Source: Amphiscolops sp. MND2022
Taxonomy: Eukaryota
Assembly: GCA_964187785.1 (NCBI GenBank)
Contig: OZ076409.1
Location: 78,184,001 to 78,248,000 of the forward strand
Reading direction: 5' to 3'
Length of the DNA: 64,000 bases
Shown here: piece by piece, positions 1,963 through 25,664 of the stretch
Position numbering within the stretch: the first letter of the stretch is position 1
Layout of the letters: each line of letters begins with the position of its first letter
Notes under the pieces: model-generated
Told to the model about the DNA's origin: nothing
The model's database searches: none
Seen by the model: the letters and a program-made list of their open reading frames with translations, nothing else
Translations under genes and position numbers: made by a program

Positions 1963-2059
1963 TTTTCTCAAACCTAAACTCCCTCCCTCGGTTTTCACCA
2001 CAAACAGAGTTTTGCGAGCATAGAAGGTCACTTTTACTTTTTTCTGCACTATGTGACTT

Positions 2060-2545
2060 GCCGAAATAACAGCTAGCCCATCTTTATGGTCTAGCCGAAG
2101 TGCATAAACATGGCGTACCAATGAGACCAGTTCTGTCACTGCCAGGTAGCTGTTACTATAGCCTGACAAAGGAGTTATCACTGTTTGGAAAGATTCCCCA
2201 AGCTGGCATTGAAACATCTACTGGTGAAATTACAACGGGTGTGTCTACCATCACACTCCAAGAAGACAAGGTTTTAGTTTCATTAGATGTCGACAAGCTT
2301 ATAAACCAACGTCCCTTTAGAAAAATCTATGGAACTGGCTATTGAAACGCTGTACAATTCCGAGTATGCCCGTTTTTTGCAAAGACACGTTTAGGAAGTT
2401 GTTACGTATGCTTGTGTCTAATGTTGAACTCGTGTCAAATGGCGAAAGTTTTTTTTGCAGAGAGACGGTGTTGCCATGAGCTCGTCTCTCGCAGTGATCC
2501 TAGCTATCCTGTGGATGAAACAGTTTGAATACCGGTTGAGTAGTA
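2060..2545 (+). pseudogene. Penelope-like element reverse transcriptase fragment (frameshifted)
   Basis: Motifs HKHGVPMRPVLS, LVSLDV, NVPLE, QRDGVAMSSSLAVILA..WMKQFE are typical of PLE RTs; the frame is broken. Confidence 0.75.
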
Positions 2546-3326
2546 CTGTTGATCAGCAGGCCTTGGACAACCAAAGATGATTTTTGGGGAACTTACAGAT
2601 GTGATTTCGGCCGGCAGCAACTAAAACAAGACTCAATTCTGAGTCGCAGCAGAAAAGCGAGTTAGATCGACGACTGCGTTCCATTTGCACTAAATTAGAC
2701 GAAGGTAATGTTAAGGCCGGAATCAGAATGGCAGTAGGCGACGACAAGATTGCAGATTTCACAGTCGACAACTACGCTGCCCTTAAGCTGAAACATCCGC
2801 AGAGGGAAACTTGCTGTTCCGGACCCCACAGATAACGATTGTTTTTCAGCCTCGGAGTTTTTTGTCCACAAGGCTCTCATGTCCTTCCCCAACGGCTCTA
2901 GTGAGTTACCAGTCACTTGGCTTAATACCAATTGGCTTAATTTTTTCGTCGAGTCATTTGGCTTAAAAATTTTAAGCCAAGTGACCACAAAATTAAGCCA
3001 ACTCCATTGCAACTCAACGAATAAATGTCAACTCCCGGAAATATCATAATGTGGGGCATATGCGGTGTATGCACGCTGGCCCTCACCGTCACCCGGCGGG
3101 CCCTTGAGGCCGCTTATATTCCCATCTTGCTAAGCGAGGTCGAACAGGAGCGAAGACCTAGCGGGAACGGAGATCGCGAAGCGATCGTAGTGGGAGCTGG
3201 TCTTTGCGACGGTGAGGGCGAGCGTGCATACACCGCATATGCCCCACATTATATTTTCGCTTTCAGAACACATATTAGATCATAAATATGGGACAGTTTG
3301 CCGAAACCCATTTTGCCGAATTCGGC

Positions 3327-3367
3327 CTAAATCACAGCCTAATTGTTGTGATGAACTTATTAAATAG
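3327..3367 (+). other. Candidate spliced-leader-derived 5' end of LINE
   Basis: ctaaatcacagcctaattgttgtgatgaacttattaaatag; the last 30 nt are 27/30 identical to 12428-12457 at the 5' end of an unrelated LINE. Confidence 0.6.
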
Positions 3368-3379
3368 TTTCCGGTTGTG

Positions 3380-4192
3380 ATGCCTCCAAAAAGACAGACG
3401 AAGCAGACAAACAGCAAAAGTGCAACTACTGACCTCCTACCCTGTGCAAAAGAAACGTGTGGAAAATGTGATGTGGAGGTAGTTGACGGGGATTCAGCCC
3501 TGGCCTGTGAACAATGCCTCAGGTACTTCCACGGGGTCTGCTTGGGCGTAAACAATGCTGTGGTGACGGCAATGGGGAATCTCCCTGGGTGCTACTGGTT
3601 CTGTGAAGAGTGTGATGGACCTCAGCGGGCTCGTGTGGATCTGCCAAAGGAAACTGAAAAGCTAAGTAAAATGGTTTCTCATTTGAATACATTAGTAGCA
3701 AAGATTCCTCCTCTTGAGATACCAAAAACTCCTGATTCATCGACTGCTAAAATAATGAATGTAATGACTGAAGATTATAAATGTCAAGTACGTATCTCTG
3801 GCATTGAAGAAACTCCTGAAAACACTGCATCAAAACAGATGATTAAAGATCAAGTTCAAATTGAAGAAGTCCTTGAGAAAATTGACTGTTCCTTCCCGAT
3901 CAAAGGTGTAAGACGAATGGGCCGCTATTACCCAGGACGCAAACGGAAAGTTTTAATAACATTCCAATCACCATGGGAAGCACGGCTGGTCATTGCCAAA
4001 GCGATTGAAAATAACCTCTTCCAGGAACACAAAGTACTGATTACTCCTGGGCTTTCCAAAGAAGACGCATTGCGCGAGAAAACGCTCCTGCAAAAGAGAT
4101 ATGATATGATACAGAATGGCACTGATTCAAAAACTTTGAAAATTAGAAAACTTAAACTCTACCAAAATGGCAAGGAGGTTCAAATTGAATGA
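3380..4192 (+). CDS. LINE ORF1 protein (PHD finger + RRM-like domain)
   Basis: CGKC..CEQC..FHGVC..WFCEEC PHD motif; VRISGIEE..VRRMG..RKVLITF..ITPGLS pattern of CR1-type ORF1. ATG at 3380. Confidence 0.85.
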   Translation: MPPKRQTKQTNSKSATTDLLPCAKETCGKCDVEVVDGDSALACEQCLRYFHGVCLGVNNAVVTAMGNLPGCYWFCEECDGPQRARVDLPKETEKLSKMVSHLNTLVAKIPPLEIPKTPDSSTAKIMNVMTEDYKCQVRISGIEETPENTASKQMIKDQVQIEEVLEKIDCSFPIKGVRRMGRYYPGRKRKVLITFQSPWEARLVIAKAIENNLFQEHKVLITPGLSKEDALREKTLLQKRYDMIQNGTDSKTLKIRKLKLYQNGKEVQIE

Positions 4193-4201
4193 CTCACAAA
4201 G

Positions 4202-7012
4202 TTGGAAGAAAAAGTTTCTAAAATTCTCTACTTGAATGTGCAAGGTCTCTTATCGTTCCAAAAATGTATTGATTTACAAAAGCTTTATCTGACTGGTTCA
4301 TATGATTTGATGCTGTTATGCGAAACCTGGTTTGACGAAAATGTTGAATCGATTATATTTCCTAATGACATCCCAACAGTCCTGAATCGAGCGGATCGGA
4401 AGGATGGTTCACATGGTGGTGTGGTGATATGTTCGAATACTTTGGATACATCTCCGGTCAAAACAAATTTCGACTTCGGTTGCGCTGTTATTTTCCAGAA
4501 CTGCTTGGTGATAGTTATTTATAATCCTCCCCTGACCAGCAAATACCGGATAATGGATAAACATCTCCTCAATTTTATTAAATCGGTTATTTGCAAAGCT
4601 TTTTGGTCGGTCGAGAAAAATATCTTAGTGTTAGGCGATTTCAATATCCCTTCGATTAATTGGGCACTCTTTCCCGCTCAAATTCCCGAGGAGTACTCCG
4701 AAGTTTTCAATTTCTTCATTCACAATGGCTTTGATCAATTAATTCATCAAACGACCCATGACGGAGGCAATATTCTAGACCTTTGTTTTGCAAACTTTGA
4801 CATTCAATCAATCTCTGTGTCGGGAAAAAATTTCCAGTCTGACCACTTCGGAATAACTATTATTTTAGAAACTTTTCATCTTAAAAAGTGGGAAATGCCT
4901 CAATCCAACTCAACCTTCTCCCTTACTCCAGATGCGGTGGAAAACATAAAGCTTGACCTATCTGACAATATATTTTCAATGGTACAGCCAAATTCCGAAT
5001 CTACTTATAGCCAGAATTGGTTCGATAATTTCGACGAAATTCTGAAGAAACACATGAGAAAGAAACGTCAAAAACGTTTGAATCTACCGTTCTATTACAC
5101 TTCGCATTCGATTCACCTTTATAATCAATTGAAAACCCTTGCGTCTTCAACGAAAAATTACAACATATCAAAATTTATGTCAGTGAAAAAAGACCTCTTG
5201 GAGTCTATTGAGTTGGATATCCATTGTTTTGTTAACCATTTTGTTAGTAACAACACGAGAATGCATGACTGTTATAATCTAGTCAGATCTTTCAAAAATT
5301 CTTCGTCCTATCCCTCAAAAATGACATGGGAGAAAAAGAATTTCTCTGGTAAACCTGATATTGCCAATGCTTTCAACGACTTTTTCTTTTGCCAATATCA
5401 AGAATGTTCAACTATCAAAAATTTCAACAACTTCGATGAATTAGAATTGAATGATGTTGAAATCACTCTAGATGAAGTGTACTCAGTTCTAAACTGTTGC
5501 ACGAATGGAACTGGACCGGATGGTCTTTCTGGGTTTCTACTGCGACAGATTTCCAACGAATTTAGCATTCATTTTCTTAAATTGGCAGAACACATTCTCA
5601 GTACATCAATTTTCCCTGCAAACTGGAAAACAACTTTCATTAGACCAATGCACAAAAAGAAATGTAAAACGGTAATCGAAAATTACAGACCTGTAGCATC
5701 TTTATCCCGTCTTTCAATTTGTTTTGAACGGCTCCTTTTTAAAAAACTTTATCCCCACTGCTCAAAAAAGATATCCCATTTACAGCATGGGTTCATGAAA
5801 AGCAAATCGATACAATCCCAATTGTTAATTCACTTAGATTACATATACAACAACCTCGACAGAGGAGATGAAGTTTTCACAGTTTATCTTGATTTCAGCA
5901 AAGCGTTTGATCGTGTTGATCATGAGATTTTATTGAAAAAGGTTGCCAGTTTTGGGATTGGTGGCAATATACTCAAACTCTTGAAAAGTTATCTCGAAGA
6001 TCGTGAACAACGAGTTAAAATTGACGACTGTCTCTCAACTGCCCTTCCAATCAAAAGTGGTGTCCCCCAGGGCTCGGTTATTGGACCTTTATTATTTTTA
6101 ATCTTCATTAATGATTTGCCTGGTGTTTGTGTCGACTCAATAATGTTACTCTTTGCAGACGATTCGAAAATCTCAAATGCTGATCCCATTGAACTCCAGA
6201 ATGATCTTATAAGGATTTATAACTGGGCGAAAGCAAATAAAATGGAATTCAATAACACGAAAACTGAACTACTATGGTTTACTCTTCATCGCTATAAAAT
6301 TTCTGATAGACGTGTATTGGTCTTTGATTCTAAAGATATTGAGTTTTCTACGGTCCCTATTAAAGATTTGGGTATCAATTTTACGTCTGATTTGAAATGG
6401 TCAGCCCACATCGATGTTCGTATTAGAAAAGCTTTTTCACGATTCATGATGTTAAAGCGGTCCTTACCGACTACCTTACCGGCTAATGTAAAATCACAAG
6501 TTTACAAACTTTATATCCTACCAATAATCACCTATGGATCAGTCCTATGGTTTCCCAACAAGACTGATTTATCGAAATTAGAAGTCTTTCAAAATAAAGT
6601 TATTCGTTGGTTTGGACTTATAGATGATTATAAGGATCGGTTATTAGCCCTAAATTTGCTTCCCTTTTCTCTGCTGTTTCAGTTGAACGACCTCCTATTC
6701 CTACATCAATGTATTGTGAACGATTCTCCGATATGTTCAGGACTGCTCTACAAAGAATCTCTCCGCCATTATGACACCCGATTTTCATCACGAAAACTTC
6801 TCTTTAAAAAGAAAACAAGACTGAAGTCCACTGACAGCTTTTTCATAAACAGAGTTGTTAATCTAGCTAATTTCGTATCATCGAAATTCGAGATTGACTT
6901 CTTTGACACGACCTCATTTAAGCCTAAACTGAAAAATATTTTCCGAAACTACCTTAAATATGGCTATGATAAATCGGATTGTAGAAGGTTTTTGAAGTGC
7001 TATTGCTGTTGA
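4202..7012 (+). CDS. LINE ORF2: apurinic-like endonuclease + reverse transcriptase
   Basis: 936-aa open frame. APE motifs LNVQGL, CETW, GDFN, LDL, SDH; RT motifs NYRPVA, QHGF, LDFSKAFD, GVPQGS, FADD. In frame with ORF1 behind a single TGA. Confidence 0.93.
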   Translation: MEEKVSKILYLNVQGLLSFQKCIDLQKLYLTGSYDLMLLCETWFDENVESIIFPNDIPTVLNRADRKDGSHGGVVICSNTLDTSPVKTNFDFGCAVIFQNCLVIVIYNPPLTSKYRIMDKHLLNFIKSVICKAFWSVEKNILVLGDFNIPSINWALFPAQIPEEYSEVFNFFIHNGFDQLIHQTTHDGGNILDLCFANFDIQSISVSGKNFQSDHFGITIILETFHLKKWEMPQSNSTFSLTPDAVENIKLDLSDNIFSMVQPNSESTYSQNWFDNFDEILKKHMRKKRQKRLNLPFYYTSHSIHLYNQLKTLASSTKNYNISKFMSVKKDLLESIELDIHCFVNHFVSNNTRMHDCYNLVRSFKNSSSYPSKMTWEKKNFSGKPDIANAFNDFFFCQYQECSTIKNFNNFDELELNDVEITLDEVYSVLNCCTNGTGPDGLSGFLLRQISNEFSIHFLKLAEHILSTSIFPANWKTTFIRPMHKKKCKTVIENYRPVASLSRLSICFERLLFKKLYPHCSKKISHLQHGFMKSKSIQSQLLIHLDYIYNNLDRGDEVFTVYLDFSKAFDRVDHEILLKKVASFGIGGNILKLLKSYLEDREQRVKIDDCLSTALPIKSGVPQGSVIGPLLFLIFINDLPGVCVDSIMLLFADDSKISNADPIELQNDLIRIYNWAKANKMEFNNTKTELLWFTLHRYKISDRRVLVFDSKDIEFSTVPIKDLGINFTSDLKWSAHIDVRIRKAFSRFMMLKRSLPTTLPANVKSQVYKLYILPIITYGSVLWFPNKTDLSKLEVFQNKVIRWFGLIDDYKDRLLALNLLPFSLLFQLNDLLFLHQCIVNDSPICSGLLYKESLRHYDTRFSSRKLLFKKKTRLKSTDSFFINRVVNLANFVSSKFEIDFFDTTSFKPKLKNIFRNYLKYGYDKSDCRRFLKCYCC

Positions 7013-9816
7013 TTTTTGTTTCTTATATTTTCAATCATAAATAATCAGGCTGTTTAATATCTACAGAAAAGTAGAATTTAAGTCTTTTACTACTACGGCA
7101 AAGTGTCCCTACCTTGCCCATTTTGCCGAATTTTTTCGGCAAAGTGGGCATCGGAATTCGGCAAAGTGGGCATCGAAATTCGGAAAAGTGGGCAAGGCAG
7201 TTGTCTAACAGACTTTTTGAGAGCGAAAATATAATGTGGGCAGATCCGATGTATGCACGCTTGCCCTCACCGTCGCAAAGACCAACTCCCACTACGATCG
7301 CTTCGCGATCTCCGTTCCCGCTAGGTCTTTGCTTCTGTTCGACCTCGCTCAGCAAGATGGGAGCATAAGCGGCCCAAGGGGCCGCTGGGCACTAGAGGAA
7401 ATGGGGTTATATCCGAGACAGGTTTTATACTTTGAATCACTTGATAGCTTTAAAAGTCTGTTTTTGCAGAAGTAGACAACTGCCTTGCCCACTTTGCCAA
7501 ATTCCGGTGCCCACTTTGCAGAAAATAATTCGGCAAAATGTCCCATGCTTTCGGCAAAGTGAGATTCGGCAAAAAGTGCATATACCTAGATCATAAAGGG
7601 GTTAAACATACGAATTTTAGATTAAATTAGATCCATTAGACCCAAGCAATTAGATCACGGAGGCGTACACTCCAATACGCTGACTACACTATGAGATAAA
7701 TTCGACAAAATCTGCCACGTGTTTTCAACTAGGTGGTTTTAAGTCAAATGATTTTAAGCCAAGTGACCAACACCCGAGACACTTAGCTTAAAAAAATTAA
7801 ACCAAGTGACCAATTGTATTAAGCCAAATGACTTTAAGCCAAATGGCATTAAGCCAAGTGACCATTTACCCTCTAGTGCAGGGTTGGATTGCATTTCGCC
7901 CCAAATTTTGAAAGATTTGACTGCCAAGTCGAACGGGCAAACTGGACTGAATTTTCTCAGAGCCTTAACAAATCTTGTGAATGTGGTTCTCGGAGGAAAA
8001 GAACCTTTCGAACTTCAGGCGGAATTCTTTGGTGCGAAATTAATTCCGTTAAAAAAAGCCCGATGGAGGACTTCGTCCTATCGCTATAGGCAATACTTTC
8101 CGCCGATTGTCCGCAAAATGTGCCGGATACCATGTCTTCGAATCACGTCAAGCAAGATATGGAAGTCGACAAGAAAAAAACCGAAACGCGACAGAAAACA
8201 GCAGCAGAAAAGCGAGTTAGATCGACGACTATGTTCCATTTGCACTAAATTAGACGAAGGTAATGTTAAGGCCGGTATCAGAATGGCAGTAGGCGACAAC
8301 AAGGTTGCAGATTTCACGGTCGACAACTACGCTGCCCTCAAGCTGAAACATCCGCAGAGGGAAACTTGCTCTGTTCCGCACCCCACAGATATCGATTGTT
8401 TTTCAAATTCGGAGTTATTCGTCCACAATGTTCTCATTTCCGTCCCCAACGGCTCTAGTGCAGGGTTGGATGGCATTTCGCCCAAAAGTTTGAAAGATTT
8501 GACTACCAAGTCGAACGGGCAAACGGGACTGAACTTTTTCAGAGCCTTAACAAATCTTGTGAATGTGAATCTGGAAGGAAAAAAAACCTTTCGAACTTCG
8601 GCCGTACTTTTTTGGTGCGAAACTAATTGCGCTAAAAAAGCCTGATGAAGGACTTTGCTGTGTGCAATACTTTCCGCCGATTGTCTGCAGAATATGCCCT
8701 ATACCGTGTATTTGAATCACGTCCGTCAAGCAATATATGGAAATTGACAAGTAGGTGCAGGCACCAAAAGGGGCGCTGAATTTGTCTCATATGTTTTCCG
8801 TTGTTTGATACAAAGCCTCGAGCCCAAAGAACACGTAATTTTGAAAATTGACTCTCAAACGCTTTTAATTCGATAAACCGACAATCCATGCTAGAGAAAA
8901 CTTTTGAAATACACCCTGAAGTTTATAACTACTCATACTCGGCGTACAGCTAGCCAAGATTTATTTTTTTACGATGATTCAGTAATCAAATCTTGTGAAG
9001 GGACCCGGTTGGGTTGGGTCTTCAGCTTTATTTTTGGATTCCATTCAGGATCTGATTGATAGTTTGGAGTGGAAAATAAACTTATGTACCTTGACGATAG
9101 AAATTTAGGCGATGATTACAGAACCGTTTTGAAAGATCTCAAAAAAATTGTTGAAGCGGAAAGAACGCTGGGAATGCGGAACTTTTTTGCTTGTTGACAT
9201 CATAGAAAAACACCGATCGACAATTTTAGCAACTTTCCAAAAGCTTTGCGCAGAGATCAAAATACCAAAAAATGATGAACTTATCAGTCTTGGTTCACCG
9301 CTAGGCCCGAAATCACAAGCAGACTTTTCAGAAAAATTTTTTGAACTGGAGTATTTGAAATTTGCACTATGATTTTTTAATGTTGAAAAAATGCTCCAGT
9401 CTGCCAAAGTTGTTCTATTTACCGAGAACCAGTACATATTTTAATCGTCCAGCTCTCTTGGAAAAGTATGATAAAACCCTATGCAATGGGCTTTCCAAAG
9501 TATGTAAGGTAAGTTTCGACGATATTTCGACTACTCAGCTGGCTCTGCCTGCTAAAGAGGGTGGTTTTAGGGTTTCATCCGCATCATAATTAGCACTTCA
9601 TGCCTTTTTGGCCTCAACTTTTGGTGCGAGTGACTTTCTCACGACGATTTTTTCGGAAATTTTTGAAGATGTTTAGTTTACAAAAGCGTTTGAGAAATCG
9701 TTGAGTTTGACGAATGAACAAGAATGTCCTGTCGATGGAACCCAGAAAAAATGGACAAAACGTGTCTACGTCAAAACCGACAAAGATTCGATTTCTAGAA
9801 TGGATGACAAACGTTC

Positions 9817-11480
9817 TACTACTGCTACTACTACTACTAATGAAAGACTTAATTCCCTTTGTATTAAAAAGCATGGTCTAAAAGGCGGTATAAACGACTT
9901 TTACACGGTAAAAAGAAAATTTCAAGCACGACAGATGTTCCAAGAGCACTTAATAAACCAAGTGCAAGTACGATTTATTTCGAAGAAAGACACTCGATTA
10001 TGAAGGTAAATAGAAAGGTCCTTTCTGAAGCAGTTGAAGTTATCGAATACAGAAATTTTGATTGCTGATAGGTAGTTAGAGCAGCAGCAGATTCTCTGGA
10101 AGTAAGATTCCTGGGTTTTGAATTTGTGACAGGGTTTTACTGGGGAAAGATGGAGGGATTTGGAGCTTCTCAGATCATTAGCAGGATGGCTAAAACATAT
10201 TAAGTCTTTAATTTTTAGGTCATATTTGCCATGAATGGTCCTATTAAGGAAAAGCATGTCTTGGCAAACAAGATAGAACAAAATTGGAAGTGTGTGTTGC
10301 AGCAAGTTGTTGAAGATAGTTTGATAATCCAGTAACCCCGTAACTGTTGAACGATTTTTCAAAAATCATGTTGTTGGTCACAAATCAATGGTCGTGTTTG
10401 AGGATAAATGAAACGAAACATATTTTTTGCACGAATTAAGGATAATTGAGGCAAATTGCTAATTGGACGATATTTTTCCACGTTTTCGGGGTTATCGAAT
10501 TTGAGAATTGGCTTTTTTTAAACATTTCCAGAAATCAGGCCACTGTTTTGATTTGATAATGGTAATAAAAAGCTGGGTGACCAGAAGTTATAGTAGCCCA
10601 AGACAGGAGTTAAAGACGAACGTGGGAATGGGATCAGAGCTCAAATAATTTAAGGATGCAATGGAAAGTAATTCTTCAAACCACGAAATTTCAATTGTCA
10701 TATCCTGCAAAAACACTTGTGGACTTTTAGCTATTGGTAAGAATGTTGCGTTGCTTGTTTGGTATACCGAGCAGAAGTAGGAATTGAAGAGGTTAGCGAT
10801 ATGAATATTGGTGCTAGCTTTGATATGTTTCCAATTCATCTGGTTGGGTAAATGATTAAAAGAGAATGAGCGAGAGAATGTACTTGAAGCAAGAGCGAGT
10901 CGTATTGGGTAATAGACTGTCAATTAAGATAGTTTTGTCCGGTTCAATAAAATTTTGTATGTCGTCCTTCAACTTCTTTTGATATGTTGGTTCATAATTG
11001 TTTTTGCCAGCTGTGCGGAGCTTATTAATCATATGTACAGAGTGGGAGGAATAGAAATATGGAAACTCAAGTCTCCTCTTAGTTTTGCGATGACATGATG
11101 CACTGATTGCATTCATAAGCACTTGATACCAGAAGGCAACATAATAATCAAAAGAGAATTGAAGAAAACTGAAGTTAGGGAAGCTCAGAAGATCATAGTA
11201 GCGAGAAGACAGATTTTGATTGAAGCAGTGAGTGGAGAAAGGAGAATTTGAAAATTTTGATGTTGTTTGAGAACTTTGGTTGGACAAAGGCTTAGGTAAG
11301 GAAAACCATGCAATAACAGCAAAAAGATCCGAGTAAAGACTATCATCCACACAAACCGTAAAAATTCTGGAGTTGAGGTCAAAATGATATCGAGTAAGCT
11401 TCCGGAATTGTAAGTAGGTTCGAAAACAAGTGACAGGAGAATTAAATTTTCGACTTTTTCCAATACTGCAAGTTTTTAAC
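9817..11480 (-). mobile_element. Deleted/decayed CR1/L2-group LINE fragment inserted in the CRE element
   Basis: Minus-strand ORFs similar to ORF2 at 4202 (KRRLEFPYFYSSHSVH vs KRLNLPFYYTSHSIH; IANLFNSYF). Trinucleotide tail at 9817-9840. The CRE reading (RMDDKRS|KVFNAH) resumes after it. Confidence 0.8.
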
Positions 11481-12427
11481 GAAAGTTCGAAAGTTTTTAA
11501 CGCTCATGAAGGCAAATTCGGTTCTCAATGGCTGAACGTCGTCCCTTGCAAGAACCGAGGCCTAAAACTTGATGATCAGCAGCTTCGGATTTCAATTGGT
11601 TTACGTCTCGGAACCAACATTCGTGTTGCGCATACGTGCCACTGTGGTAAAAGAGTTGAGCGTGACGGTTTACACGGTCTCTCTTGCACCAACAGTGCTG
11701 GTCGCTCCTCACGTCATGCTACTCTCGATTCTCTCATAAAGCAGACGTAAGCATCTCTCGAATTGCCTTCAATGCTCGAACCGCGTGGACTGTACCGAAC
11801 TGATGGCAAACGCCCAGAAGGTGTTACCATGATTCCTTGGGAATGGGTAAACAGCTGGTGTGGGATGTCACGGTTGTGGATGCTCCTGAATCAGGCTCTT
11901 TATGCAACCCGGGAACAACCGCCACCGAGGCTGAAGCGCCTAAAGTTGAGAAGTATCGCGAAAGAAACAATGGATACATTTCTCAACCAATGGTTTTGGA
12001 AGAACAGGGTTATTTAGGCGAAAGCAGTGAAAATCTCATCACGCGTCTCTGTAAAGTGCTCTGTCGTTCGCACGACGATCAACATGCTGGCAGTTTTTTG
12101 AAGCAACGAATTTCAATGGCTCTTCAGACTGGCAATGCGGCCTGTGTTCTAGGAACTGTGAGCGACAGCGATGCTTCCAAATTAATTTATTACATATAGC
12201 TTATTTGTTTAAAACCTCTATATCATTGCAGTTTTTTAAAAAAATTTTCTACCGGTCGATTGGGATAGTGGCTGGTATGAGTTGTTTGTTGGTTGTTTTT
12301 TTTGTTACTGGTCTACTGGTATAGTGGATCGTATGGGGTTCCCTACTTTCGTTGCAGACCACGGATGTGTGTCTTCTCCCTCCATCATGTTGTTACACAT
12401 GGCACTTAATTGATGACCAAAATCCAT

Positions 12428-12457
12428 CCTAGTTGTTGTGATACACTTATTAAATAG
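12428..12457 (+). other. Candidate spliced-leader-derived 5' end, directly followed by ATG
   Basis: cctagttgttgtgatacacttattaaatag|ATG; matches 3338-3367. Confidence 0.6.
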
Positions 12458-15400
12458 ATGCGATATGGTGATGAGCCGACAAGAAGAAGCCCTAGGGGAT
12501 TTCAGAGATCGGACGAAGATAACGGGGGGAATCACAATGCAGAATGTACACCAAACGACGAGGCATGTCAAAGCATTTGCAAGAAGTGTGATGTGCAGGT
12601 CCTAAATGGTCAATTAGCAATAATGTGTGACATGTGCTCTATATGGTTTCATGAAGAATGTTCGAGTTTGTCCAAGAAGCAATTAAAAGTCATCGGAGAG
12701 ATCGACGCCCGAAAGTGGTTCTGTGGTTGGTGTGTGGACAATGTGGATGGTCGTCTCAAGTGTGTGTCTAACAATCTAGAAATGAAGAAGGACAACGAAG
12801 ATATAAAAAGATTAGTAACCTCGTTTACTATCAATAAAACATCTTATGCATCCAAAGTTTCGGAAAAACTAATGTTAAAGAAACTTGCACTGATAATCGT
12901 AAATATCCTGATGAGCAAACACTATAAATATCTGGCACAATAGATGATGATTTTCTTTCTTCTAGTGTATTACAAAAACGGAGGTTGTAGATTATTTTCC
13001 CCGGTAACAAACTGGATTTCATATTTACCAACAAGCTCGGGAAGATTGTTCTATTATTTAACAACAATGACTGTTGCACTAGAGTGAAAAGCAAGTGGCG
13101 TTCGAATCTTCTCGGGACAGATACTAGAGTTTTTTCACCGAATGAAAGCAGATGACATAGGGGTATAATCCAAGATGTGCCGATTGAAATTTCCACTGAT
13201 GACATTAAGAATGCTTTAGCTGGCGAAAAAGAGGAAGAACTTCAAGTGATCCGATATTTCAAAGGCAGAAAGGCCATTCCATTAGTGGAACTAGTTTTCA
13301 AGAAAGAATGCACTTTTAACAAAAATCTTCCAAATGGATTTACGCTAGAGTATATGTACTTCAAGATGGACCCAAAACGTACCACCCAACGAATTATTCA
13401 ATGTTTCAACTGTCAACAATGGGGTAGCCAGGTATCCAAAATTTGTAAAAATCATTCGTGGTGTGCTATCTGTGGCTACGAGCACCCAACAAACCGTCAT
13501 AAAGAATATGTATGCCATTAAAAACATGAACATGCAAAAGATAGTATCCCATCAAATGAAATCTACTGTGTGAATTGCGGCAAGGAAAACACATCATTTG
13601 ATAAAAACTGCGAAATGTACAAGGAAATATGGAAAACGTTGAACAGAGTCAACTCGTGATGAAGCAATTTCTCTTAGCTATGACTATAAATTTTGCTGGT
13701 CCCTCCGCTCACTCGTGTATTGCTGTGAATAAATATATAAACGACAACAACATAAAAGTTATTACGGCTCTGAACGTCATGGAAAATTTCAGGGTTTTGG
13801 TAACTACGATACCTAACGCGCTCGATCAAACAAACTTGTTTGCTCCTTGCTCATACTCAAACAATTAATTCCTATGAAGTGAAAATAACACCCAGAGAAG
13901 GCGTTGATTGCTGTTTTGCAGCAATCTCTTTTGAAAAGAGGAAATTTTTGCTGGGATCAAAACACGTACATTTAGGAAACACTGAGAACGTCAAATGCGC
14001 CACAGATGTTCTGGCTGAAGCGTATACGTTATGCAAAAATGAAAATGAAACCGGACCAATATTCTTCGGCGGTTGGAATTCGAGGCATCCGCAATGGGGT
14101 GATGAATTAGAAAATGAATAAGGTAAATTACTCGCCGACTACTGTGCCGACAATAGTCTTTCTATAGTAAGCCCTCACCAGCCCAATTTTATCTCAGCAA
14201 GCAAAAAAGGTAGCAGCATAATCGATTTTTGCATCACTGAACAAAGTTGCTCTGATCTAGTATGCAAATCACGTGTGATCGAAGATATCTAATTCTTCTC
14301 TGGTGCTTCAGAGCAAAGTCATTGGCTTGTTCTCTTTGATATAGATATTCCTGTGAAAAATGATAAACCAAAACGGTGTGTGCTAAACTACAAAATGGCA
14401 AATTGGGAAGAAATAAGTATACAACTGGAAAATAATATGGTGGAAAACATGGATACCATAATAACGGAAGCACCTACGAAAGCTCTCCTAACATTTATGG
14501 GCCTAGTGAGAGGTGCTTGTGAAAATTTGATTCCACGGAAAACATTTTGTAAACATTCCAAACCATACTGGAACTATAAATTGACTCACTTATCAAAAAT
14601 TGAAAGAACCACGCAACAACTATAGACTCCAATGTAACCCGAAAAACAAAAACAATGTTGAAATGGCAAAAATTGAATTCAAGAAGGAAATGAAAAAGAA
14701 TAATACCCGTTGGACGCAAAATGGCATCATACAAATGAATGAGGGAAACTCACAAACATTTTTCGGTACTATCCGCAAATTCAATGGTTCAATGGACTTT
14801 AATAACATAGGAGTACTTCGTCACAAGGGTAAGACACTGGAAAAAGATTGCCCTAAAGCTGCGCTCTTTCAACGTAATTTCTCCGATGGCGCACACCTTA
14901 CTGGTAAACTATATAACGACGCTTTTTATGAAAAAAACAAAAAGAGAAGTGAAACAAAAGTTGGCTCACGCCGTTGGGAAATATTACAAGGGGGATGCCA
15001 GAATGATCTGAACATGCCGATTACAATGAATGAATTTAAACAAGCCATGAAGAAAGTGAAGACAAACAACAAGAGCGTGGATCCTTATGGCTTTCACCCT
15101 AAACAATAAAAGGAATTCAACTTTAACACCATTAGCACATGTTTGCTTTTGATAAACAGTGCATTCTTCATGGGGATTTGGCCGTTTGATGAAACCATAG
15201 TCAAATTCTTGAAAAAATCTGGCAAAACTGATTATTCTAATCCATCTTCATGGAGATCTATTTCACTTACATCCCAATCAGGAAAAGTAGTTGAACGAGT
15301 ATTAGATAGAAGACTGATATCATCAGATATCCTCGACATTGATGAACAACAATTAGGTTTTCAGCCAGGCAAGTCCACTTTGCACTACTAATACAAATTA

Positions 15401-15994
15401 TATCATGATATCTTAGCAAAGAAAAAATTACCAACAGGTTATGATCTAGAGAAAGTTTTTGATTCCGTAGAGCAAACTTTATTGCTAAGCAAGCTAATAA
15501 ACTGTGGTTTAAATGCTCTAATGTTAGCTACTTCAAAATCGTTTTTATATCGAAATCAGTATTCAAGTCAATGATTATATCGATGTCACTGTCCCTCTTA
15601 TTGGTTCACCTCAGGGGGTTGTACTGTCACCACTTTTGTTTATATTCTATATGAAGGGCTTCCTCCAAGATGCGGACTTAACATTTAAGTATGCAGATGA
15701 CAGTACTGCTCTTTCAAGCAAAGAAACCCTAAGAACATCTTTAGAAAAGGCGGAAAGTTATACATACAAATGGAGGCAGGTGCTGATTAAGGACAAAACT
15801 GAACATATAAATTTCCCAAAAGAAGTATTTCAGTCCGACTATAAATTTGTTCAGGGAAGTAAAATACTTGGCTTATGGTTTGAACGAGATTTGAGTTTCA
15901 AAACACATGCTGCCATTATCTCTGCCTCAATATTTAATTTCTGGAAAAAAACTATATTGCTGAGCAAAAATATGCGCTTAAATATCAAATAACA

Positions 15995-16490
15995 GATTTA
16001 AGTATAATAAAACACAACAATGTCGATAAATTGAGTGTAATAGCTCGTCGGTCCACCTCTTTTTTGGATACATTGCATAATTCGTCTTGGCATGTAATCA
16101 ATAAGCTTTTTTTATTAAACTTTGTGGGTAGGTTAGCCAAAGATAGTTTAGCACGTCCTTAAGCTTGGTTGTATTTCTGGGCAATGGTTCCGTTTTTCGC
16201 AAGGATTGTTGAAGTTGATCACATCTCGAACTGATCCGGTTGATAAATAGCGCTGCCAAGTGTTCTTAACTGTTCGTTTTTGACATCCGTATTTGGCAGA
16301 AACTTGGTCAAATTTGCACCGAACTTAATTGCACGGATCAGTTCGCTTCTTTTTTCACACAAAAATCTGACCATGTTTCCTGACTGCAACTTCAAAACGT
16401 GATAAAGTTTTTGAATTGTATTCAAAATCTTCATGGTGGCGTGAAAAGTTTAGTTTTTCAGCTTCCTGTTTTAGCCTTCTCAAAATTTTG
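15995..16490 (-). mobile_element. Internally deleted Tc1/mariner remnant inside the LINE RT
   Basis: N-terminal HTH-like MVRFLCEKRSE..RYLSTGSVRD and the typical Tc1 C-terminus LIDYMPRRIMQCIQKRGGPTSY (read from the duplicate copy). Boundaries approximate. Confidence 0.7.
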
Positions 16491-17463
16491 CTTCAAGCGA
16501 ATATTTATGCTCAACAGTGTAGTATACTTATAACGCAAGGGTTAAATCCATTTTATGCTGTACGTATCTTTGATTCATATGTGAAACCACGTGTCACGTA
16601 CTGCATGACTATTTGGTTTCATCAAAGTATGACATCTCTGGACAAGATGTGGTGGAGTATTCATAAATCTATCTTTGGGATAAGAAACTACCAAGTATCG
16701 AAACACGTAGTTAGTGTTTTAAGTAATATTTGGCCTCCTTCTCCACTCTACACTAATCAAGTATTAATGTTTCTACATTCAACTGCCAGAAGTGCAGATA
16801 TTCTAAACCCTGTTAATTTAGCAATCAAACGCCAACATATTATTATGGTGAGATTATTTTGGGAAACAAACTTTCAATTGTAAATCGTGATCCTGATCAA
16901 ATAAAGGCAATATACATACAATATGCTAGACAATCCTCAGTCAGTACGTTTAAGAAGGAGGTGGATGAGTATTGCAACGAGAAATAAAGCAAGGTCTTAT
17001 GTACTCAAACTACTTGAAACAGCATCATGAAAATGCTAACACCAAATCCTAGGAAAAAATCTGTCAACACGCCACGTGTTATAATGAATGATCTTGAAGT
17101 ACGCGAAGTATTATTCAGATGTATCAAGAGCATAACCGATATTTGTCCCTATTGTAGAGTTGTCGATAATACTGCACAATTCTTCTTTCCCTGTGTCTCA
17201 TACCAAGAACAGAGAAGGAGTTTCATTAAGTAGCTTAAAAATCAAAAAATTTACGAAACGCTAGTTAGTTTGCTGAATTGCGAAAACAAGCATGTTATAA
17301 GCGCTTTGGCTGGCTTAATTGCAAGCATCGATTAATTCCTATAACCCTGCAATCCTCTCTTGCCTTTCTTCTGTTGAATTCTATTATACTATTTTCTTTG
17401 TTCTGGAATCAATGATAGAAAGTCATTTGTACTGCCACATCCTGCAGGTTAATTGATCTCTTC

Positions 17464-18303
17464 GGGAAAGGGTCTTTTCGGCAAAGACGTTTCGGCAAAA
17501 AAAAGTTCGAGACGTTTCGGCAAATTTTTCATGCCGAAACGTCCCGTATCATCTTGGTTTTGTTTTCGGTTTTCTACAAACTGGACCTAACCAGTTTGTA
17601 GAAAACCAAAAACAAAACCAAGATTATATACCAGTTTCTAGAATTCTGGAATTGAAGAAAAACCATAAGACCATTAATGTAGGAACGATGCAAAGCACAA
17701 AGCGTGCCTCGGATATGTCCTTATTTCCTCTAGTGCCCCGCGGCCCATTGGGGCGCTTATATACCCATCTTGCTAAGCGAGGTGGAACAGGAGCAAAGAC
17801 CTAGCGGGAACGGAGATCGCGAAGCGATCGTAGTGGGAGCTGGTCTTGGCGACGGTGAGGGCGAGCGTGCATACACTGGATATGCCCCACATGGGTGGCT
17901 GTAAATAGGTCGAATTTTTCTGGTCGAAAGGAGAGGTCGAACCTTTTGATCGAATTGCAGGGATCGAATGGAATGCGGTCGAATTTTATCGTATTTGTTG
18001 TATGACTCGGTCGCTTCGCTCCTGCATTCAGGGCACTAGGGGTATGTGAACATATCTGACTACGTTATGAAAATTTCGACCCGAGTTGATTCGATCTCAT
18101 TCAAAAATTTGGTATGTCGACCTGAGGACTAACTCTGATCTTCGATCCCGTTCCTTCGACCTACTTCCGCCCACCCGTCCCACATATCATACGAAACTTT
18201 TCGGCAAATGTTTTCAGCCTGGGACGTTTCGGCATAATTTTTTGCCGAAAAGTCTGCCGCCATGTTTTTGCAGAAACGTCTTTTGCCGAAACGTCCGGAA
18301 TCC
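17464..18303. mobile_element. TIR element of type B (TTCGGCAAA repeats), 8-bp TSD, with nested insertions
   Basis: ATCTCTTC (17456-17463) / ATCTCTAC (18304-18311); GG...CC ends; contains the same GC-rich core as 3100-3250. Confidence 0.75.
17893..18176. mobile_element. TIR element type C (GGGTGGC..TAGGTCGAA ends), 9-bp TSD, internally deleted
   Basis: GCCCCACAT / GTCCCACAT flanks; inverted termini; same family as 25315-25664. Confidence 0.8.
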
Positions 18304-18312
18304 ATCTCTACT

Positions 18313-19297
18313 TCCATGGTATCTTTTTTTTAGACCTATATATCGTTGCAGCTTAAAACAAAGTACCGGTCGACTGGGATAGCGGCTGTTATGATTAGTT
18401 TGTTGGTTGTTTTTTTGATACTGCGAACATGGCTGGTATGGGTTTCCCTACTTTCGTCGTGTCTTCTCCCCACAGGACGGTTTACACGGTCTTTCTTGCA
18501 CCAAGAGTGCTGGTCGCTTCTCACGTCATGCTACTCTCAATTCTCTCATAAAGCAGATGTTGGGATCTCTCGACTTGCCTTCAATGCTCGAACCGCGTGG
18601 ACTGTACCGAACTGATGACAAACGATCAGACGGTGTTACGATGATTCCTTGGGAAATGGGTAAGGTACAATTGGTCACTTCGCTTAATTTTTTTAAAGCT
18701 AAGTGTCTCGGGTATTGGTCACTTGGCTTAAAGTCATTTGACTTGAAACCACTTAGTTGAAAACACGCGGCAGATTTTGTCGAATTTATCTTTATAACGT
18801 AGTCAGCGTATTATCATAACATGTCATATCAAGTACCCCTCGGATATGTCCCCATTTCCTCTAATGCCCTGCGGCCCCTTGGGACCGCTTATATTCCCAT
18901 CTTGCTAAGCGAGGTCGAACAGGAGCAAAGACCTACCGGGAACGACGATCAACGAGCTGGCAGCTTTTTGAAGCAACGAATTTCAATGGCTCTTCAGACT
19001 GGCAATGCGGCCTGTGTTCTAGGAACTGTGAGCGACAGCGATGCTTCCAAATTAATTTATTACATATAGCTTATTTGTTTAAAACCTCTATATCATTGCA
19101 GTTTTTTAAAAAATTTTACTACCGGTCGATTGGGATAGTGGCTGGTATGAGTTGTTTGTTGGTTGTTTTTTTTGTTACTGGTCTACTGGTATAGTGGCTC
19201 GTATGGGGTTCCCTACTTTCGTTGCAGACCACGGATGTGTGTCTTCTCCCTCCATCATGATGTTACACATGGCACTTAATTGATGACCAAAATCCAT
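18313..19297 (+). mobile_element. Cluster of CRE 3' fragments plus a truncated type-A element
   Basis: CRE 3' UTR (18330-18470), then RLE-coding piece [22 protein letters not shown], then a TTGGCTTAA array (18664-18810), then CRE C-terminus and 3' UTR. Confidence 0.7.
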
Positions 19298-22200
19298 CCT
19301 AGTTGTTGTGATACACTTATTAAATAGATGCGATATGGTGATGAGCCGACAAGAAGAAGCCCTAGGGGATTTCAGAGATCGGACGAAGATAACGGGGGGA
19401 ATCACAATGCAGAATGTACACCAAACGACGAGGCATGGCAAAGCATTTGCAAGAAGTGTGATGTGCAGGTCCTAAATGGTCAATTAGCAATAATGTGTGA
19501 CATGTGCTCTATATGGTTTCATGAAGAATGTTCGAGTTTGTCCAAGAAGCAATTAAAAGTCATCGGAGGGATCGACGCCTGAAAGTGGTTCTGTGGTTTG
19601 GTGTGTGGACAATGTGGATGGTCGTCTCAAGTGTGTGTCTAACAATCTAGAAATGAAGAAGGACAACGAATATATAAAAAGATTAGTAACCTCGTTTACT
19701 ATCAATAAACCATCTTAAGCATCCAAAGTTTCGGAAAAACTAATGTTAAAGAAACTTGCACTGATAATCGTAAATATCCTGATGAGCAAACACTATACAT
19801 ATCTGGCACAATAGATGATGATTTTCTTTCTTCTAGTGTATTACAAAAACGGAGGTTGTAGAGATTCTTTTCCCCGGTAACAAACTGGATTTCATATTTA
19901 CCAACAAGCTCGGGAAGATTGTTCTATTATTTAACAACAATGACTGTTGCACTAGAGTGAAAAGCAAGTGGTGTTCGAATCTTCTCGGGACAGATACTAG
20001 AGTTTTTTCACCGAATGAAAGCAGATGACATAGGGGTATAATCCAAGATGTGCCGATTGAAATTTCCACTGATGACATCAAGAACGCTTTAGCTGGCGAA
20101 AAAGAGGAAGAACTTCAAGTGATCCGATATAACAAAGGCAGAAAGGCCATTCCATTAGTGGAACTAGTTTTCAAGAAAGAATGCACTTTTAACAAAAATC
20201 TTCCAAATGGATTTACGCTAGAGTATATGTACTTCAAGATGGACCCAAAACGTACCACCCAACGAATTATTCAATGTTTCAACTGTCAACAATGGGGTAG
20301 CCAGGTATCCAAAATTTGTAAAAATCATTCGTGGTGTGCTATCTGTGGCTACGAGTACCCAACAAACCGTCATAAAGAATATGTATGCCATTAAAAACAT
20401 GAACATGCAAAAGATAGTATCCCATCAAATGAAATCTACTGTGTGAATTGCGGCAAGGAAAACACATCATTTGATAAAAACTGCGAAATGTACAAGGAAA
20501 TATGGAAAACGTTGAACAGAGTCAACTCGTGATGAAGCAATTTCTCTTAGCTATGACTATAAATTTTGCTGGTCCCTCCGCTCACTCGTGTATTGCTGTG
20601 GATAAATATATAAACGACAGCAACATAAAAATTATTACGGCTCTGAACGTCATGGAAAATTTCAGGGTTTTGGTAACTACGATATCTAACGCGCTCGCTC
20701 AAACAAACTTGTTTGCTCCTTGCTCATACTCAAACAATTAATTCCTATGAAGTGAAAATAACACCCAGAGAAGGCGTTGATTGCTGTTTTGCAGCAATCT
20801 CTTTTGAAAAGAGGAAATTTTTGCTGGGATCAAAACACGTACATTTAGGAAACACTGAGAACGTCAAATGCGCCACAGATGTTCTGGCTGAAGCGTATAC
20901 GTTATGCAAAAATGAAAATGAAACCGGACCAATATTCTTCGGCGGTTGGAATTCGAGGCATCCGCAATGGGGTGATGAATTAGAAAATGAATAAGGTAAA
21001 TTACTCGCCGACTACTGTGCCGACAATAGTCTTTCTATAGTAAGCCCTCACCAGCCCACTTTTATCTCAGGAAGCAAAAAAAGTAGCAGCATAATCGATT
21101 TTTGCATCACTGAACAAAGTTGCTCTGATCTAGTATGCAAATCACGTGTGATCGAAGAAATCCAATTCTTCTCTGGTGCTTCAGAGCAAAGTCATTGGCT
21201 TGTTCTCTTTGATATAGATATTCCTGTGAAAAATGATAAACCAAAACGGTGTGTGCTAAACTACAAAATGGCAAATTGGGAAGAAATAAGTATACAACTG
21301 GAAAATAATATGGTGGAAAACATGGATACCATAATAACGGAAGCACCTACGAAAGCTCTCCTAACATTTATGGGCCTAGTGAGAGGTGCTTGTGAAAATT
21401 TGATTCCACGGAAAACATTTTGTAAACATTCCAAACCATACTGGAACTATAAATTGACTCACTTATCAAAAATTGAAAGAAGCACGCAACAACTATAGAC
21501 TCCAATGTAACCCGAAAAACAAAAACAATGTTGAAATGGCAAAAATTGAATTCAAGAAGGAAATGAAAAAGAATAATACCCGTTGGACGCAAAATGGCAT
21601 CATACAAATGAATGAGGGAAACTCACAAACATTTTTCGGTACTATCCGCAAATTCAATGGTTCAATGGACTTTAATAACATAGGAGTACTTCGTCACAAG
21701 GGTAAGACACTGGAAAAAGATTGCCCTAAAGCTGCGCTCTTTCAACGTAATTTCTCCGATGGCGCACACCTTACTGGTAAACTATTTAACGACGCTTTTT
21801 ATGAAAAAACAAAAAGAGAAGTGAAACAAAAGTTGGCTCACGCCGTTGGGAAATATTACAAGGGGGATGCCAGAATGATCTGAACATGCCGATTACAATG
21901 AATGAATTTAAACAAGCCATGAAGAAAGTGAAGACAAACAACAAGAGCGTGGATCCTTATGGCTTTCACCCTAAACAATAAAAGGAATTCAACTTTAACA
22001 CCATTAGCACATGTTTGCTTTTGATAAACAGTGCATTCTTCATGGGGATTTGGCCGTTTGATGAAACCATAGTCAAATTCTTGAAAAAATCTGGCAAAAC
22101 TGATTATTCTAATCCATCTTCATGGAGATCTATTTCACTTACATCCCAATCAGGAAAGGTAGTTGAACGAGTATTAGATAGAAGACTGATATCATCAGAT

Positions 22201-25159
22201 ATCCTCGACATTGATGAACAACAATTTGGTTTTCAGCCAGGCAAGTCCACTTTGCACTACTAATACAAATTATATCATGATATCTTAGCAAAGGAAAAAT
22301 TACCAACAGTTTATGATCTAGAGAAAGTTTTTGATTCCGTAGAGCAAACTTTATTGCTAAGCAAGCTAATAAACTGTGGTTTAAATGCTCTAATGTTAGC
22401 TACTTCAAAATCGTTTTTATATCGAAATCAGTATTCAAGTCAATGATTATATCGATGTCACTGTCCCTCTTATTGGTTCACCTCAGGGGGTTGTACTGTC
22501 ACCACTTTTGTTTATATTCTATATGAAGGGCTTCCTCCAAGATGCGGACTTAACATTTAAGTATGCAGATGACAGTACTGCTCTTTCAAGCAAAGAAACC
22601 CTAAGAACATCTTTAGAAAAGGCGGAAAGTTATACATACAAATGGAGGCAGGTGCTGATTAAGGACAAAACTGAACATATAAATTTCCCAAAAGAAGTAT
22701 TTCAGTCCGACTATAAATTTGTTCAGGGAAGTAAAATACTTGGCTTATGGTTTGAACGAGATTTGAGTTTCAAAACACATGCTGCCATTATCTCTGCCTC
22801 AATATTTAATTTCTGGAAAAAAACTATATTGCTGAGCAAAAATATGCGCTTAAATATCAAATAACAGATTTAAGTATAATAAAACACAACAATGTCGATA
22901 AATTGAGTGTAATAGCTCGTCGGTCCACCTCTTTTTTGGATACATTGCATAATTCGTCTTGGCATGTAATCAATAAGCTTTTTTATTAAACTTTGTGGGT
23001 AGGTTAGCCAAAGATAGTTTAGCACGTCCTTAAGCTTGGTTGTATTTCTGGGCAATGGTTCCGTTTTTCGCAAGGATTGTTGAAGTTGATCACATCTCGA
23101 ACTGATCCGGTTGATAAATAGCGCTGCCAAGTGTTCTTAACTGTTCGTTTTTGACATCCGTTTTTGGCAGAAACTTGGTCAAAAGTTGCACCGAACTTAA
23201 TTGCACGGATCATTTCGCTTCTTTTTTCACACAAAAATCTGACCATGTTTCCTGACTGCAACTTCAAAACGTGATAAAGTTTTTGAATTGTATTCAAAAT
23301 CTTCATGGTGGCGTTAAAAGTTTAGTTTTTCAGCTTCCTGTTTTAGCCTTCTCAAAATTTTGCTTCAAGGGAATATTTATGCTCAACAGTGTAGTATACT
23401 TATAACGCAAGGGTTAAATCCATTTTATGCTGTACGTATCTTTGATTCATATGTGAAACCACGTGTCACGTACTGCATGACTATTTGGTTTCATCAAAGT
23501 ATGACATCTCTGGACAAGATGTGGTGGAGTAATCATAAATCTATCTTTGGGATAAGAAACTACCAAGTATCGAAACACGTAGTTAGTGTTTTAAGTAATT
23601 TTTGGCCTCCTTCTCTACTCTACACTAATCAAGTAATAATGTTTCTACGTTCAACTGCCAGAAGTGCAGATATTCTAAACCCTGTTAATTTAGCAATCAA
23701 ACGCCAACATATTATTATGGTGAGAATATTTTGGGACACAAACTTTCAATTTTAAATCGTGATCCTGATCAAATAAAGGCAATATACATACAATATGCTA
23801 GACAATCCTCAGTCAGTACTTTTAAGAAGGAGGTGGATGAGTATTGCAACGAGAAATAAAGCAAGGTCTTATGTACTCAAACTACTTGAAACAGCATCAT
23901 GAAAATGCTAACACCATATCCTAGGAAAAAATCTGTCAACACGCCACGTGTTATAATGAATGATCTTGAAGTACGCGAAGTATTATTCAGATGTATCAAG
24001 AGCATAACCGATATTTGTCCCTATTGTAGAGTTGTCGATAATACTGCACAATTCTTCTTTCCCTGTGTCTCATACCAAGAACAGAGAAGGAGTTTCATTA
24101 AGTAGCTTAAAAATCAAAAAATTTACGAAACGCTAGTTAGTTTGCTGAATTGCGAAAACAAGCATGTTATAAGCGCTTTGGCTGGCTTAATTGCAAGCAT
24201 CGAATAATTCCTATAACCCTGCAATCCTCTCTTGCCTTTCTTCTGTTGAATTCTATTATACTATTTTCTTTGTTCTGGAATCAATGATAGAAAGTCATTT
24301 GTACTGCCACATCCTGCAGGTTAATTGATCTCTTCGGGAAAGGGTCTTTTCGGCAAAGACGTTTCGGCAAAAAAAAGTTCGAGACGTTTCGGCAAATTTT
24401 TCATGCCGAAACGTCCCGTATCATCTTGGTTTTGTTTTCGGTTTTCTACAAACTGGACCTAACCAGTTTGTAGAAAACCAAAAACAAAACCAAGATTATA
24501 TACCAGTTTCTAGAATTCTGGAATTGAAGAAAAACCATAAGACCATTAATGTAGGAACGATGCAAAGCACAAAGCGTGCCTCGGATATGTCCTTATTTCC
24601 TCTAGTGCCCCGCGGCCCATTGGGGCGCTTATATACCCATCTTGCTAAGCGAGGTGGAACAGTAGCAAAGACCTAGCGGGAACGGAGATCGCGAAGCGAT
24701 CGTAGTGGGAGCTGGTCTTGGCGACGGTGAGGGCGAGCGTGCATACACTGGATATGCCCCACATGGGTGGCTGTAAATAGGTCGAATTTTTCTGGTCGAA
24801 AGGAGAGGACGAACCTTTTGATCGAATTGCAGGGATCGAATGGAATGCGGTCGAATTTTATCGTATTTGTTGTATGACTCGGTCGCTTCGCTCCTGCATT
24901 CAGGGCACTAGGGGTATGTGAACATATCTGACTACGTTATGAAAATTTCGACCCGAGTTGATGTCGACCTGAGGACTAACTCTGATCTTCGATCCCGTTC
25001 CTTCGACCTACTTCCGCCCACCCGTCCCACATATCATACGAAACTTTTCGGCAAATGTTTTCAGCCTGGGACGTTTCGGCATAATTTTTTGCCGAAAAGT
25101 CTGCCGCCATGTTTTTGCAGAAACGTCTTTTGCCGAAACGTCCGGAATCCATCTCTACT
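19298..25159 (+). mobile_element. Duplicate of the decayed I/Jockey-like LINE (SL-like start 19298-19327; Tc1 remnant ~22867-23365; type B 24336-25150; type C 24765-25023)
   Basis: Near-identical to 12428-18312. Confidence 0.85.
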
Positions 25160-25314
25160 TCCATGGTATCTTTTTTTTAGACCTATATATCGTTGCAGCT
25201 TAAAACAAAGTACCGGTCGACTGGGATAGCGGCTGTTATGATTAGTTTGTTGGTTGTTTTTTTGATACTGCGATAATGGATGGTATGGGTTTCCCTACTT
25301 TCGTCGTGTCTTCT

Positions 25315-25664
25315 GGGTGGGCGGAAATAGGTCGAAGGAACGGGATCGAAAATCAGAGTTAGTCCTCAGGTCGACAATACCAAATTTTTGAATGGGATCG
25401 AAACAACTCGGATCGAAATTTTTATAACGTAGTCAGATATGTTCACATACCCCTAGTGCCCTGAATGCAGGAGCGAAGCGAAGCGGAGCGACGTGCCATA
25501 TGGCCTTGCCTCAATGTTGCTACTTGGCGAAGGGAGCGAAGCGACCGAGCCATACAACAAATACGATAAAATTCGACCGCATTCCATTCGATCCCTGTAA
25601 TTCGATCAAAAGGTTCGACCTCAGTCCTTTCGACCAGAAAAATTCGACCTATTTACAGCCACCC
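25315..25664. mobile_element. 350-bp non-autonomous TIR element type C (MULE/Merlin-like by TSD length), recent insertion
   Basis: Perfect 9-bp TSD GTGTCTTCT (25306-25314, 25665-25673); TIR gggtggc.g.aa(a)taggtcgaa; the paralogous site at ~18459-18467 is empty. Confidence 0.9.

Follow-up and report, generated by a model that had tools for sequence, protein, structure and literature searches.

The host spliced-leader exon as a probable self-renewed 5' end of many LINE families in the acoel Amphiscolops sp.

In the genome of Amphiscolops sp. MND2022, the 32-nt exon of the host spliced-leader (SL) RNA stands at the head of many unrelated LINE families. Scars in the DNA show that the AG which ends the genomic copy of this exon has been used as a splice acceptor, and a fresh leader is likely gained at each round of retrotransposition. 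We assign to this reading a probability of about 0.78. It developed from an earlier prediction, made on the window, i.e. the whole 64-kb stretch of DNA analysed, that LINE RNAs had been trans-spliced and then retrotransposed.

The shared leader and its source in the host

The window contains an intact LINE (LINE A) and a decayed one (LINE B), whose features are listed by position and strand.

3336..3367, + strand: SL exon copy that opens LINE A, matching the exon of the SL RNA gene at 31/32 positions, with a private A18G
3323..3335, + strand: 13-nt stretch between a repeated 16-mer and the leader, absent from siblings
3368..3373, + strand: TTTC(A/C)G motif directly 3' of the leader, kept across deep LINE lineages (47/70 sites)
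3380..4192, + strand: LINE A ORF1, 270 aa, PHD finger (E 6e-5, just under the Pfam cut-off)
4310..7012, + strand: LINE A ORF2, intact, 900 aa from the first ATG, APE endonuclease and reverse transcriptase (RT)
7088..7096, + strand: LINE A 3' tail of TAC repeats, common to siblings
12428..12457, + strand: SL exon copy without its first 2 nt at the 5' end of LINE B, 28/30 against the SL gene exon
12458..17400, + strand: LINE B body in decayed form, diverging by about 10% from siblings, 3' end approximate
19298..19327, + strand: second copy of the LINE B leader, within a 6.87-kb tandem duplication and not an independent insertion

In pairwise comparison, the leaders at 3338-3367 and 12428-12457 (duplicated at 19298-19327) are identical at 27 of 30 positions, as the original prediction had counted, and no other stretch of the 64-kb window, on either strand, comes within 10 mismatches of the leader 30-mers. 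Alignment bore out the abrupt loss of similarity past the terminal AG, and the distance from leader to ATG had been given correctly as 12 nt in LINE A and 0 nt in LINE B. The two elements had also rightly been called unrelated, their bodies lacking DNA similarity and matching only in a 55-aa RT piece at 33%. The length of the leader, proposed as about 30 or 41 nt, had to be corrected, since the alignment of copies sets it at 32 nt (3336-3367). All three differences between the window leaders are private departures from the SL-gene exon, A18G in LINE A and A7G and A19C in LINE B. The LINE A leader contains a branch-point-like CTAAT, 25 nt ahead of the terminal AG. In a separate contig set, uninformative on expression, which was compared with window positions 2000-18900, the match of one contig begins at 3336, next to a foreign flank.

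LINE A is an intact APE-type LINE, with ORF1, an ORF2 containing endonuclease and RT, and a short-repeat 3' tail. LINE B retains part of a PHD ORF1 (12458-12943), Cys/His knuckle-like parts near 13400-13500 and an endonuclease-RT frame which is broken, yet recognizable by tblastn; its nearest relative is a locus encoding PHD and zf-CCHC domains (L073). The window also includes two large tandem duplications, 98-100% identical, at 12072-25800 (period about 6.87 kb) and 48000-60400 (about 6.2 kb), and an exon of a host Rap-GAP gene (PF02145) at 30280-30750.

The 5' boundary of the elements had been defined by a target duplication, a view that could not be retained: the 16-nt repeat (3307-3322 = 7117-7132) abuts neither element end, its first unit stopping 13 nt ahead of the leader and its second beginning 20 nt past the TAC tail. 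Around the ends of full-length LINE A siblings (n=9) only flank matches of 4-7 nt, at chance level, were seen, and among 40 loci matches of at least 10 nt occurred in 8, versus 4 in the control; target duplication was rejected as a boundary marker, neither the siblings nor the 40-locus search showing one that abuts both LINE ends. Short or absent target duplications are common in CR1/L2-type elements. The 5' boundary of the LINEs was fixed by the divergence of flanks among copies. The 13-nt stretch at 3323..3335 is likely a junction insert, from which the proposed 41-nt hairpin originated; this hairpin turned out to be private to the window copy and not a feature of the family. Immediately 5' of the leader, inverted fragments of the SL are as frequent in sites as in controls (10/140 each), and the hairpin was discarded as a family trait.

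The genome contains the leader core 1,920 times, against 0 occurrences of its reversed-sequence control. An array on contig C1, from 16.23 Mb, contains the SL exon and, behind it, a GTAAGT donor, two hairpins and AATTTTTGA, an Sm-like site when judged by the Sm-binding-site consensus. GTAA(G/C)T follows the exon in every array copy read, and 25 of 29 gene-like places, with overlapping loci counted twice, are exact. The SL gene transcript (112 nt folded) has a predicted energy of -27.9 kcal/mol, z -3.0, with the donor in a stem-loop and no clear third hairpin. Each gene sits in a 904-bp tandem unit which also holds 5S rRNA (RF00001, 113-117 bits); an Rfam search of this SL/5S unit returned no SL RNA family match. 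An SL RNA gene of the kind the original prediction had suggested looking for, with the motif followed by GT and an Sm-binding site, was thus found in a 5S-linked array, a location of SL genes covered in the available text of a review (PMC4233971).

An identical SL sequence, rebuilt from unmapped transcript 5' ends, is given in the available text of the Symsagittifera roscoffensis genome paper, which reports 30.2% of the genes of this species as trans-spliced (PMC9911081). In these published transcripts, from S. roscoffensis, the motif stands at 5' ends, as the original prediction would require of ordinary host mRNAs (PMC9911081). In the present genome, two host exons with AG acceptors are preserved behind an SL. 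Judged by sequence, the motif shared by the window LINEs is the host 32-nt SL exon.

The SL/5S array (L012-L030, C1 16.23-16.30 Mb) is heavily invaded by site-specific retroelements, with at least 5 different 5' ends. Each insertion comes with a duplication of 18 (or 12-14) nt from the start of the SL exon, and the RT pieces match RVT_1 and, by their motifs, are presumably L1/Tx1-like. By analogy with NeSL/CRE, these elements are a separate SL-gene-targeting system. The intron of one SL RNA gene contains a 113-nt insertion repeating the donor region (L019:1541-1653). As to sequence variants, the SL change T25A recurs across three families (L134, L143, L151, L156, L192, L235) and could stem from a minor variant among SL genes or from a mutational hot spot; A7C is present in a single SL gene copy, L013, as well as in a chimera on C12.

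SL-headed LINEs across the genome

At 427 dispersed sites the 30-mer is exact but its next base is not G, so that the donor is lacking. The set inspected comprises the first 70 of the 100 matches listed among them, all with an exact SL, two tandem pairs being included. At these 70 sites the common sequence begins at SL nt 1-2 (AG in 61, G in 68), the flanks differ, and the six bases 3' of the leader are TTTCCG in 27 and TTTCAG in 20. The sites fall into 34 clusters. An RT on the same strand was found in 37 of the 40 sites traced for 6 kb; of the remaining three, one is a family-A copy with a deletion, one is related to an RT-bearing family and one is a short non-coding repeat. When 33 RT pieces were placed in a tree, with no reference members and with six short pieces omitted, LINE B among them, they separated into 14-15 lineages at 70-90% identity, with identities down to 24%, and exact leaders span lineages at 24-35% RT identity. 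Representatives carry ORF1s with PHD, with PHD and zinc knuckle, with GDSL esterase or with no match, and 5' UTRs are often just 8-13 nt long.

Three SL-headed LINEs (L070, L073, L099) have three long frames up to and including the RT frame, the first being esterase-like by eye; the second frame of L073 corresponds to PHD and zinc knuckle. At another locus (L092, C2:68985326, minus strand), the SL precedes a non-coding repeat of about 440 nt, resembling one abundant in the window (about 12072-12427, 26147-26500). It is possibly an SL-headed non-autonomous element.

LINE copies were also sampled independently of the leader. All of the 30 best body matches of family A start in the SL: 22 are exact and in register, 6 are clipped or changed at the 5' end, one is the window copy with A18G and one is joined 10 nt downstream. 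The SL is present in 29/30 best body matches both for family B, window copies and tandem duplicates included, and for a third family. Two loci (L144, L183) are without a full SL, but their flanks are unique, and no outron-bearing copy occurs among the 90 body-picked loci of the three families. Decay per copy in family B (22 copies) is 7.3% for the leader and 5.0% for the body. In the three families the SL agrees with the present SL gene at every position from 10 to 32; variant sites shared within families number 0, 1 and 0, versus 0.03, 0.75 and 0.26 expected, a comparison without power to separate inherited from regenerated leaders.

A further 20 loci, hand-picked from 30 long-frame matches while avoiding likely duplicates, were chosen by their long endonuclease-RT frame. 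The SL lies 1.1-2.5 kb upstream in 11 of them, and in 0/20 on the reverse strand. Among the nine loci without an SL, the match at L247 is antisense to a family-C copy, whose SL is L171, seven have no ORF1-sized frame and are likely 5'-truncated, and the start of L250 may lie beyond the stretch read. The top 30 PF14529 matches belong to two families already known with SL, their 1.5-kb flanks stopping short of the 5' ends. Direct SL fragments are found within the 30 nt before the leader in 19/140 sites, versus 3/140 controls, which would fit re-priming of RT at the physical end of its template.

Splice-shaped junctions and the proposed cycle

Five independent copies carry the SL joined at a second AG. 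In the third family, where 27 of 30 copies use the first junction, the SL is joined directly after TTTTCAG, 27 nt downstream, in L181, L182 and the tandem pair L050/L051. In the L099 family, of which five odd-span places of 40 were inspected, it is joined directly after TTTCAG, 6 nt downstream, in L254 and L258. No 6-nt gap was seen in the top 40 copies of the L041 family, in which ranking by score would cut such copies. In two family-A copies (L085, L108) the SL junction is shifted downstream by 7 and 10 nt and follows GG and TG instead of AG. Some shifted junctions may be microhomology deletions, and the AG-to-AG deletions also share a 2-nt repeat.

Two independent chimeras are composed of the SL, a host exon and a LINE body resuming at the first base past the AG of the SL. 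The 65-nt piece of chimera 1 (L138/L139/L143) occurs at one other genome place (L164, C13), between TTTCAG and GTGAGT, and the 77-nt piece of chimera 2 (L255) likewise at one (L259, C10), between a T-run AG and GTGAGT. Their arrangement is read as the product of two splicing events, SL trans-splicing onto the host exon and splicing of this exon to the AG of the LINE's DNA leader. A parent LINE of the right family for chimera 1 was found neither within 60 kb nor among the 40 scored of 164 candidates; for chimera 2, the 2.9 kb behind the exon hold an SL-LINE of another family, and the 40 scored of 556 candidates include no C10 match. The parents were lost or missed, or the splice occurred in trans. 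In chimera 1 the start of the intron resembles that of the LINE (7/9 nt), and an RT template switch is possible; not so in chimera 2, which is without microhomology. Near the exon source of chimera 2, a young L095-family SL-LINE (L259:455-500, C10 about 36190250, minus strand) lies about 170 nt behind the host-exon donor, on the same strand.

Since some copies have the SL joined at a second AG, and in both chimeras a host exon bounded by AG and GT is attached precisely behind the AG of the SL, the genomic SL copy acts as a splice acceptor; the renewed use of the terminal AG had been part of the original prediction and is backed by these two kinds of junction. Each new LINE RNA therefore likely gains a fresh trans-spliced leader before being copied into DNA. 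Trans-splicing of LINE RNAs followed by retrotransposition, as originally proposed, is supported by the SL gene, the published SL and the splice-shaped scars taken together.

The cycle would start with the leader, supplied by the SL RNA genes of the array. A LINE RNA, deriving from read-through or from an upstream start, would be trans-spliced at the AG which ends the DNA leader, the CTAAT within the leader acting as branch point. The TTTC(A/C)G motif behind the leader would bind U2AF, strengthening a weak site at which the first AG is usually chosen; its CCG, CCT and CAT variants would remove the second AG, so preventing loss of the motif. The upstream flank and the old leader would be discarded and a new capped leader added, making the daughter equal to the parent. 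Reverse transcription finally reaches the first base of the leader, as the boundaries of the copies and the direct SL fragments at junctions show. Full tandem leaders were seen at none of the inspected SL-headed sites, as would follow from exchange of the old leader at its own AG. The LINE RNA may be promoter-independent and of read-through origin, and the SL could help start transcription as well.

Alternative explanations and known systems

There is a minor, yet real, chance that each lineage captured the SL a single time and has since passed it on in cis, where together with TTTC(A/C)G it serves as an internal promoter, with transcription starting at SL nt 1 and trans-splicing being incidental. 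An internal SL promoter element exists in Ascaris. Both the conservation across lineages of the motif behind the SL and the frequent 8-13 nt 5' UTRs would suit a promoter, a role which the available text on dinoflagellate retrogenes proposes for their retroposed SL (PMC6050394). However, the SL identity at positions 10-32 in three families and the exact leaders across lineages exceed usual promoter needs, and the second-AG junctions and exon chimeras would be left unexplained. An inherited promoter can coexist with renewal of the leader by trans-splicing.

It is unlikely that behind each family stands a hidden master, equipped with a promoter, an outron and an acceptor of its own, and that the SL-headed copies are dead-end products. 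Such is the ordinary layout of a trans-spliced gene, and the body searches scored only 40 candidates each; nevertheless, the 90 body-picked loci included no outron-bearing copy, and retrotransposition would erase the outron, leaving no self-renewal over the depth of the tree. It is very improbable that the leader is acquired while the RNA is being reverse-transcribed, through a template jump to SL RNA or to SL-capped mRNA, or else through RNA ligation. U6-L1 chimeras provide a precedent, the scrambled direct SL fragments at junctions show RT re-priming on SL, and one chimera has microhomology; against this, almost every copy has its junction at the last base of the exon and carries no SL intron, shifted junctions mostly follow AG, and chimera 2 is without microhomology. 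Hardly any credit is due to insertion of the LINEs into SL RNA genes, in the manner of NeSL, CRE and SLACS, with transcription from the SL promoter, which is refuted for the C1 array examined: the site-specific retroelements that this array does contain carry just 12-18 nt of SL as target duplication, no site with a 32-nt SL and a non-G base lies in it among the matches listed, and the SL-headed copies are dispersed with unique flanks, 0/10 of the family-A 3' flanks read being SL intron.

NeSL, CRE, SLACS and CZAR are non-LTR elements which insert into SL genes by means of a restriction-like endonuclease. The LINEs described here share with them the LINE-type nature and the tie to the SL sequence, but are dispersed, with unique flanks, belong to the APE type and carry the whole exon as the 5' end of their RNA. 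In parasitic flatworms, SL sequence beside LTR/LINE elements was suggested to represent integrated trans-spliced retrotransposon RNAs, with 597 SL-bearing retroelement loci in 24 species and six elements in Schistosoma mansoni (PMC12582326, PMC5832876). In the available text of these papers this is a passing remark on mostly partial leaders, which were discarded from analysis, with chimeric assembly as an alternative (PMC12582326, PMC5832876). The acoel leader, unlike that of flatworms, is full length, begins almost every full-length copy in many families and shows reuse as acceptor.

According to the parts available of the papers cited, a DNA-fixed trans-spliced leader also tags the RNA origin of dinoflagellate and Perkinsus retrogenes (PMC6050394, citing Slamovits and Keeling 2008); the retrogenes concern host genes, in which relic leaders often follow a new SL in tandem (PMC6050394), whereas here 37/40 sites are LINEs. 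Transposable element RNAs use the host SL machinery in Hydra, where about 30% of their Iso-Seq reads do so (PMC12220107), and Cer1 RNA does in C. elegans, although full-length Cer1 RNA is not trans-spliced (PMC3315495); the likeness is limited to RNA, the available text reporting no genomic leader at element 5' ends (PMC12220107, PMC3315495). Trypanosome Pr77 is likewise a short 5' module found across several LINE families, but as an element-encoded internal promoter of unspliced RNA (PMC1874656), whereas the acoel module is a host snRNA exon. The open-access literature, to which the search was confined, yielded no description of acoel LINEs headed by the SL, nor any of acceptor reuse, and SL-bearing LINEs are not mentioned in the available text of the S. 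roscoffensis genome paper (PMC9911081). SL-bearing retroelements are not a new idea; what appears novel is how widespread they are in one animal, together with the DNA evidence that the AG is reused.

At every cycle, LINEs must regenerate both their 5' end and their transcription, and do so either by internal promoters or by co-transcription with rDNA and ribozyme cleavage. The SL, as cap-bearing leader and next acceptor, would be a third answer, in at least a dozen lineages of one animal. We are evenly divided on a wider proposition, by which acoel LINE lineages mostly gave up their own promoters, the SL exon became a self-renewing 5' module turning read-through into capped unit-length RNA, mobility depends on trans-splicing and the past of the host SL is recorded in the 5' ends of LINEs. 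Reuse of the SL would explain the very short 5' UTRs and give elements a way to capture first exons of the host; under it, LINE activity is predicted to track host read-through and SL supply. Such LINEs can inflate counts of SL genes and of trans-spliced genes, which calls for caution; they would also offer a way to read and date SL sequences from DNA only, in animals without RNA data.
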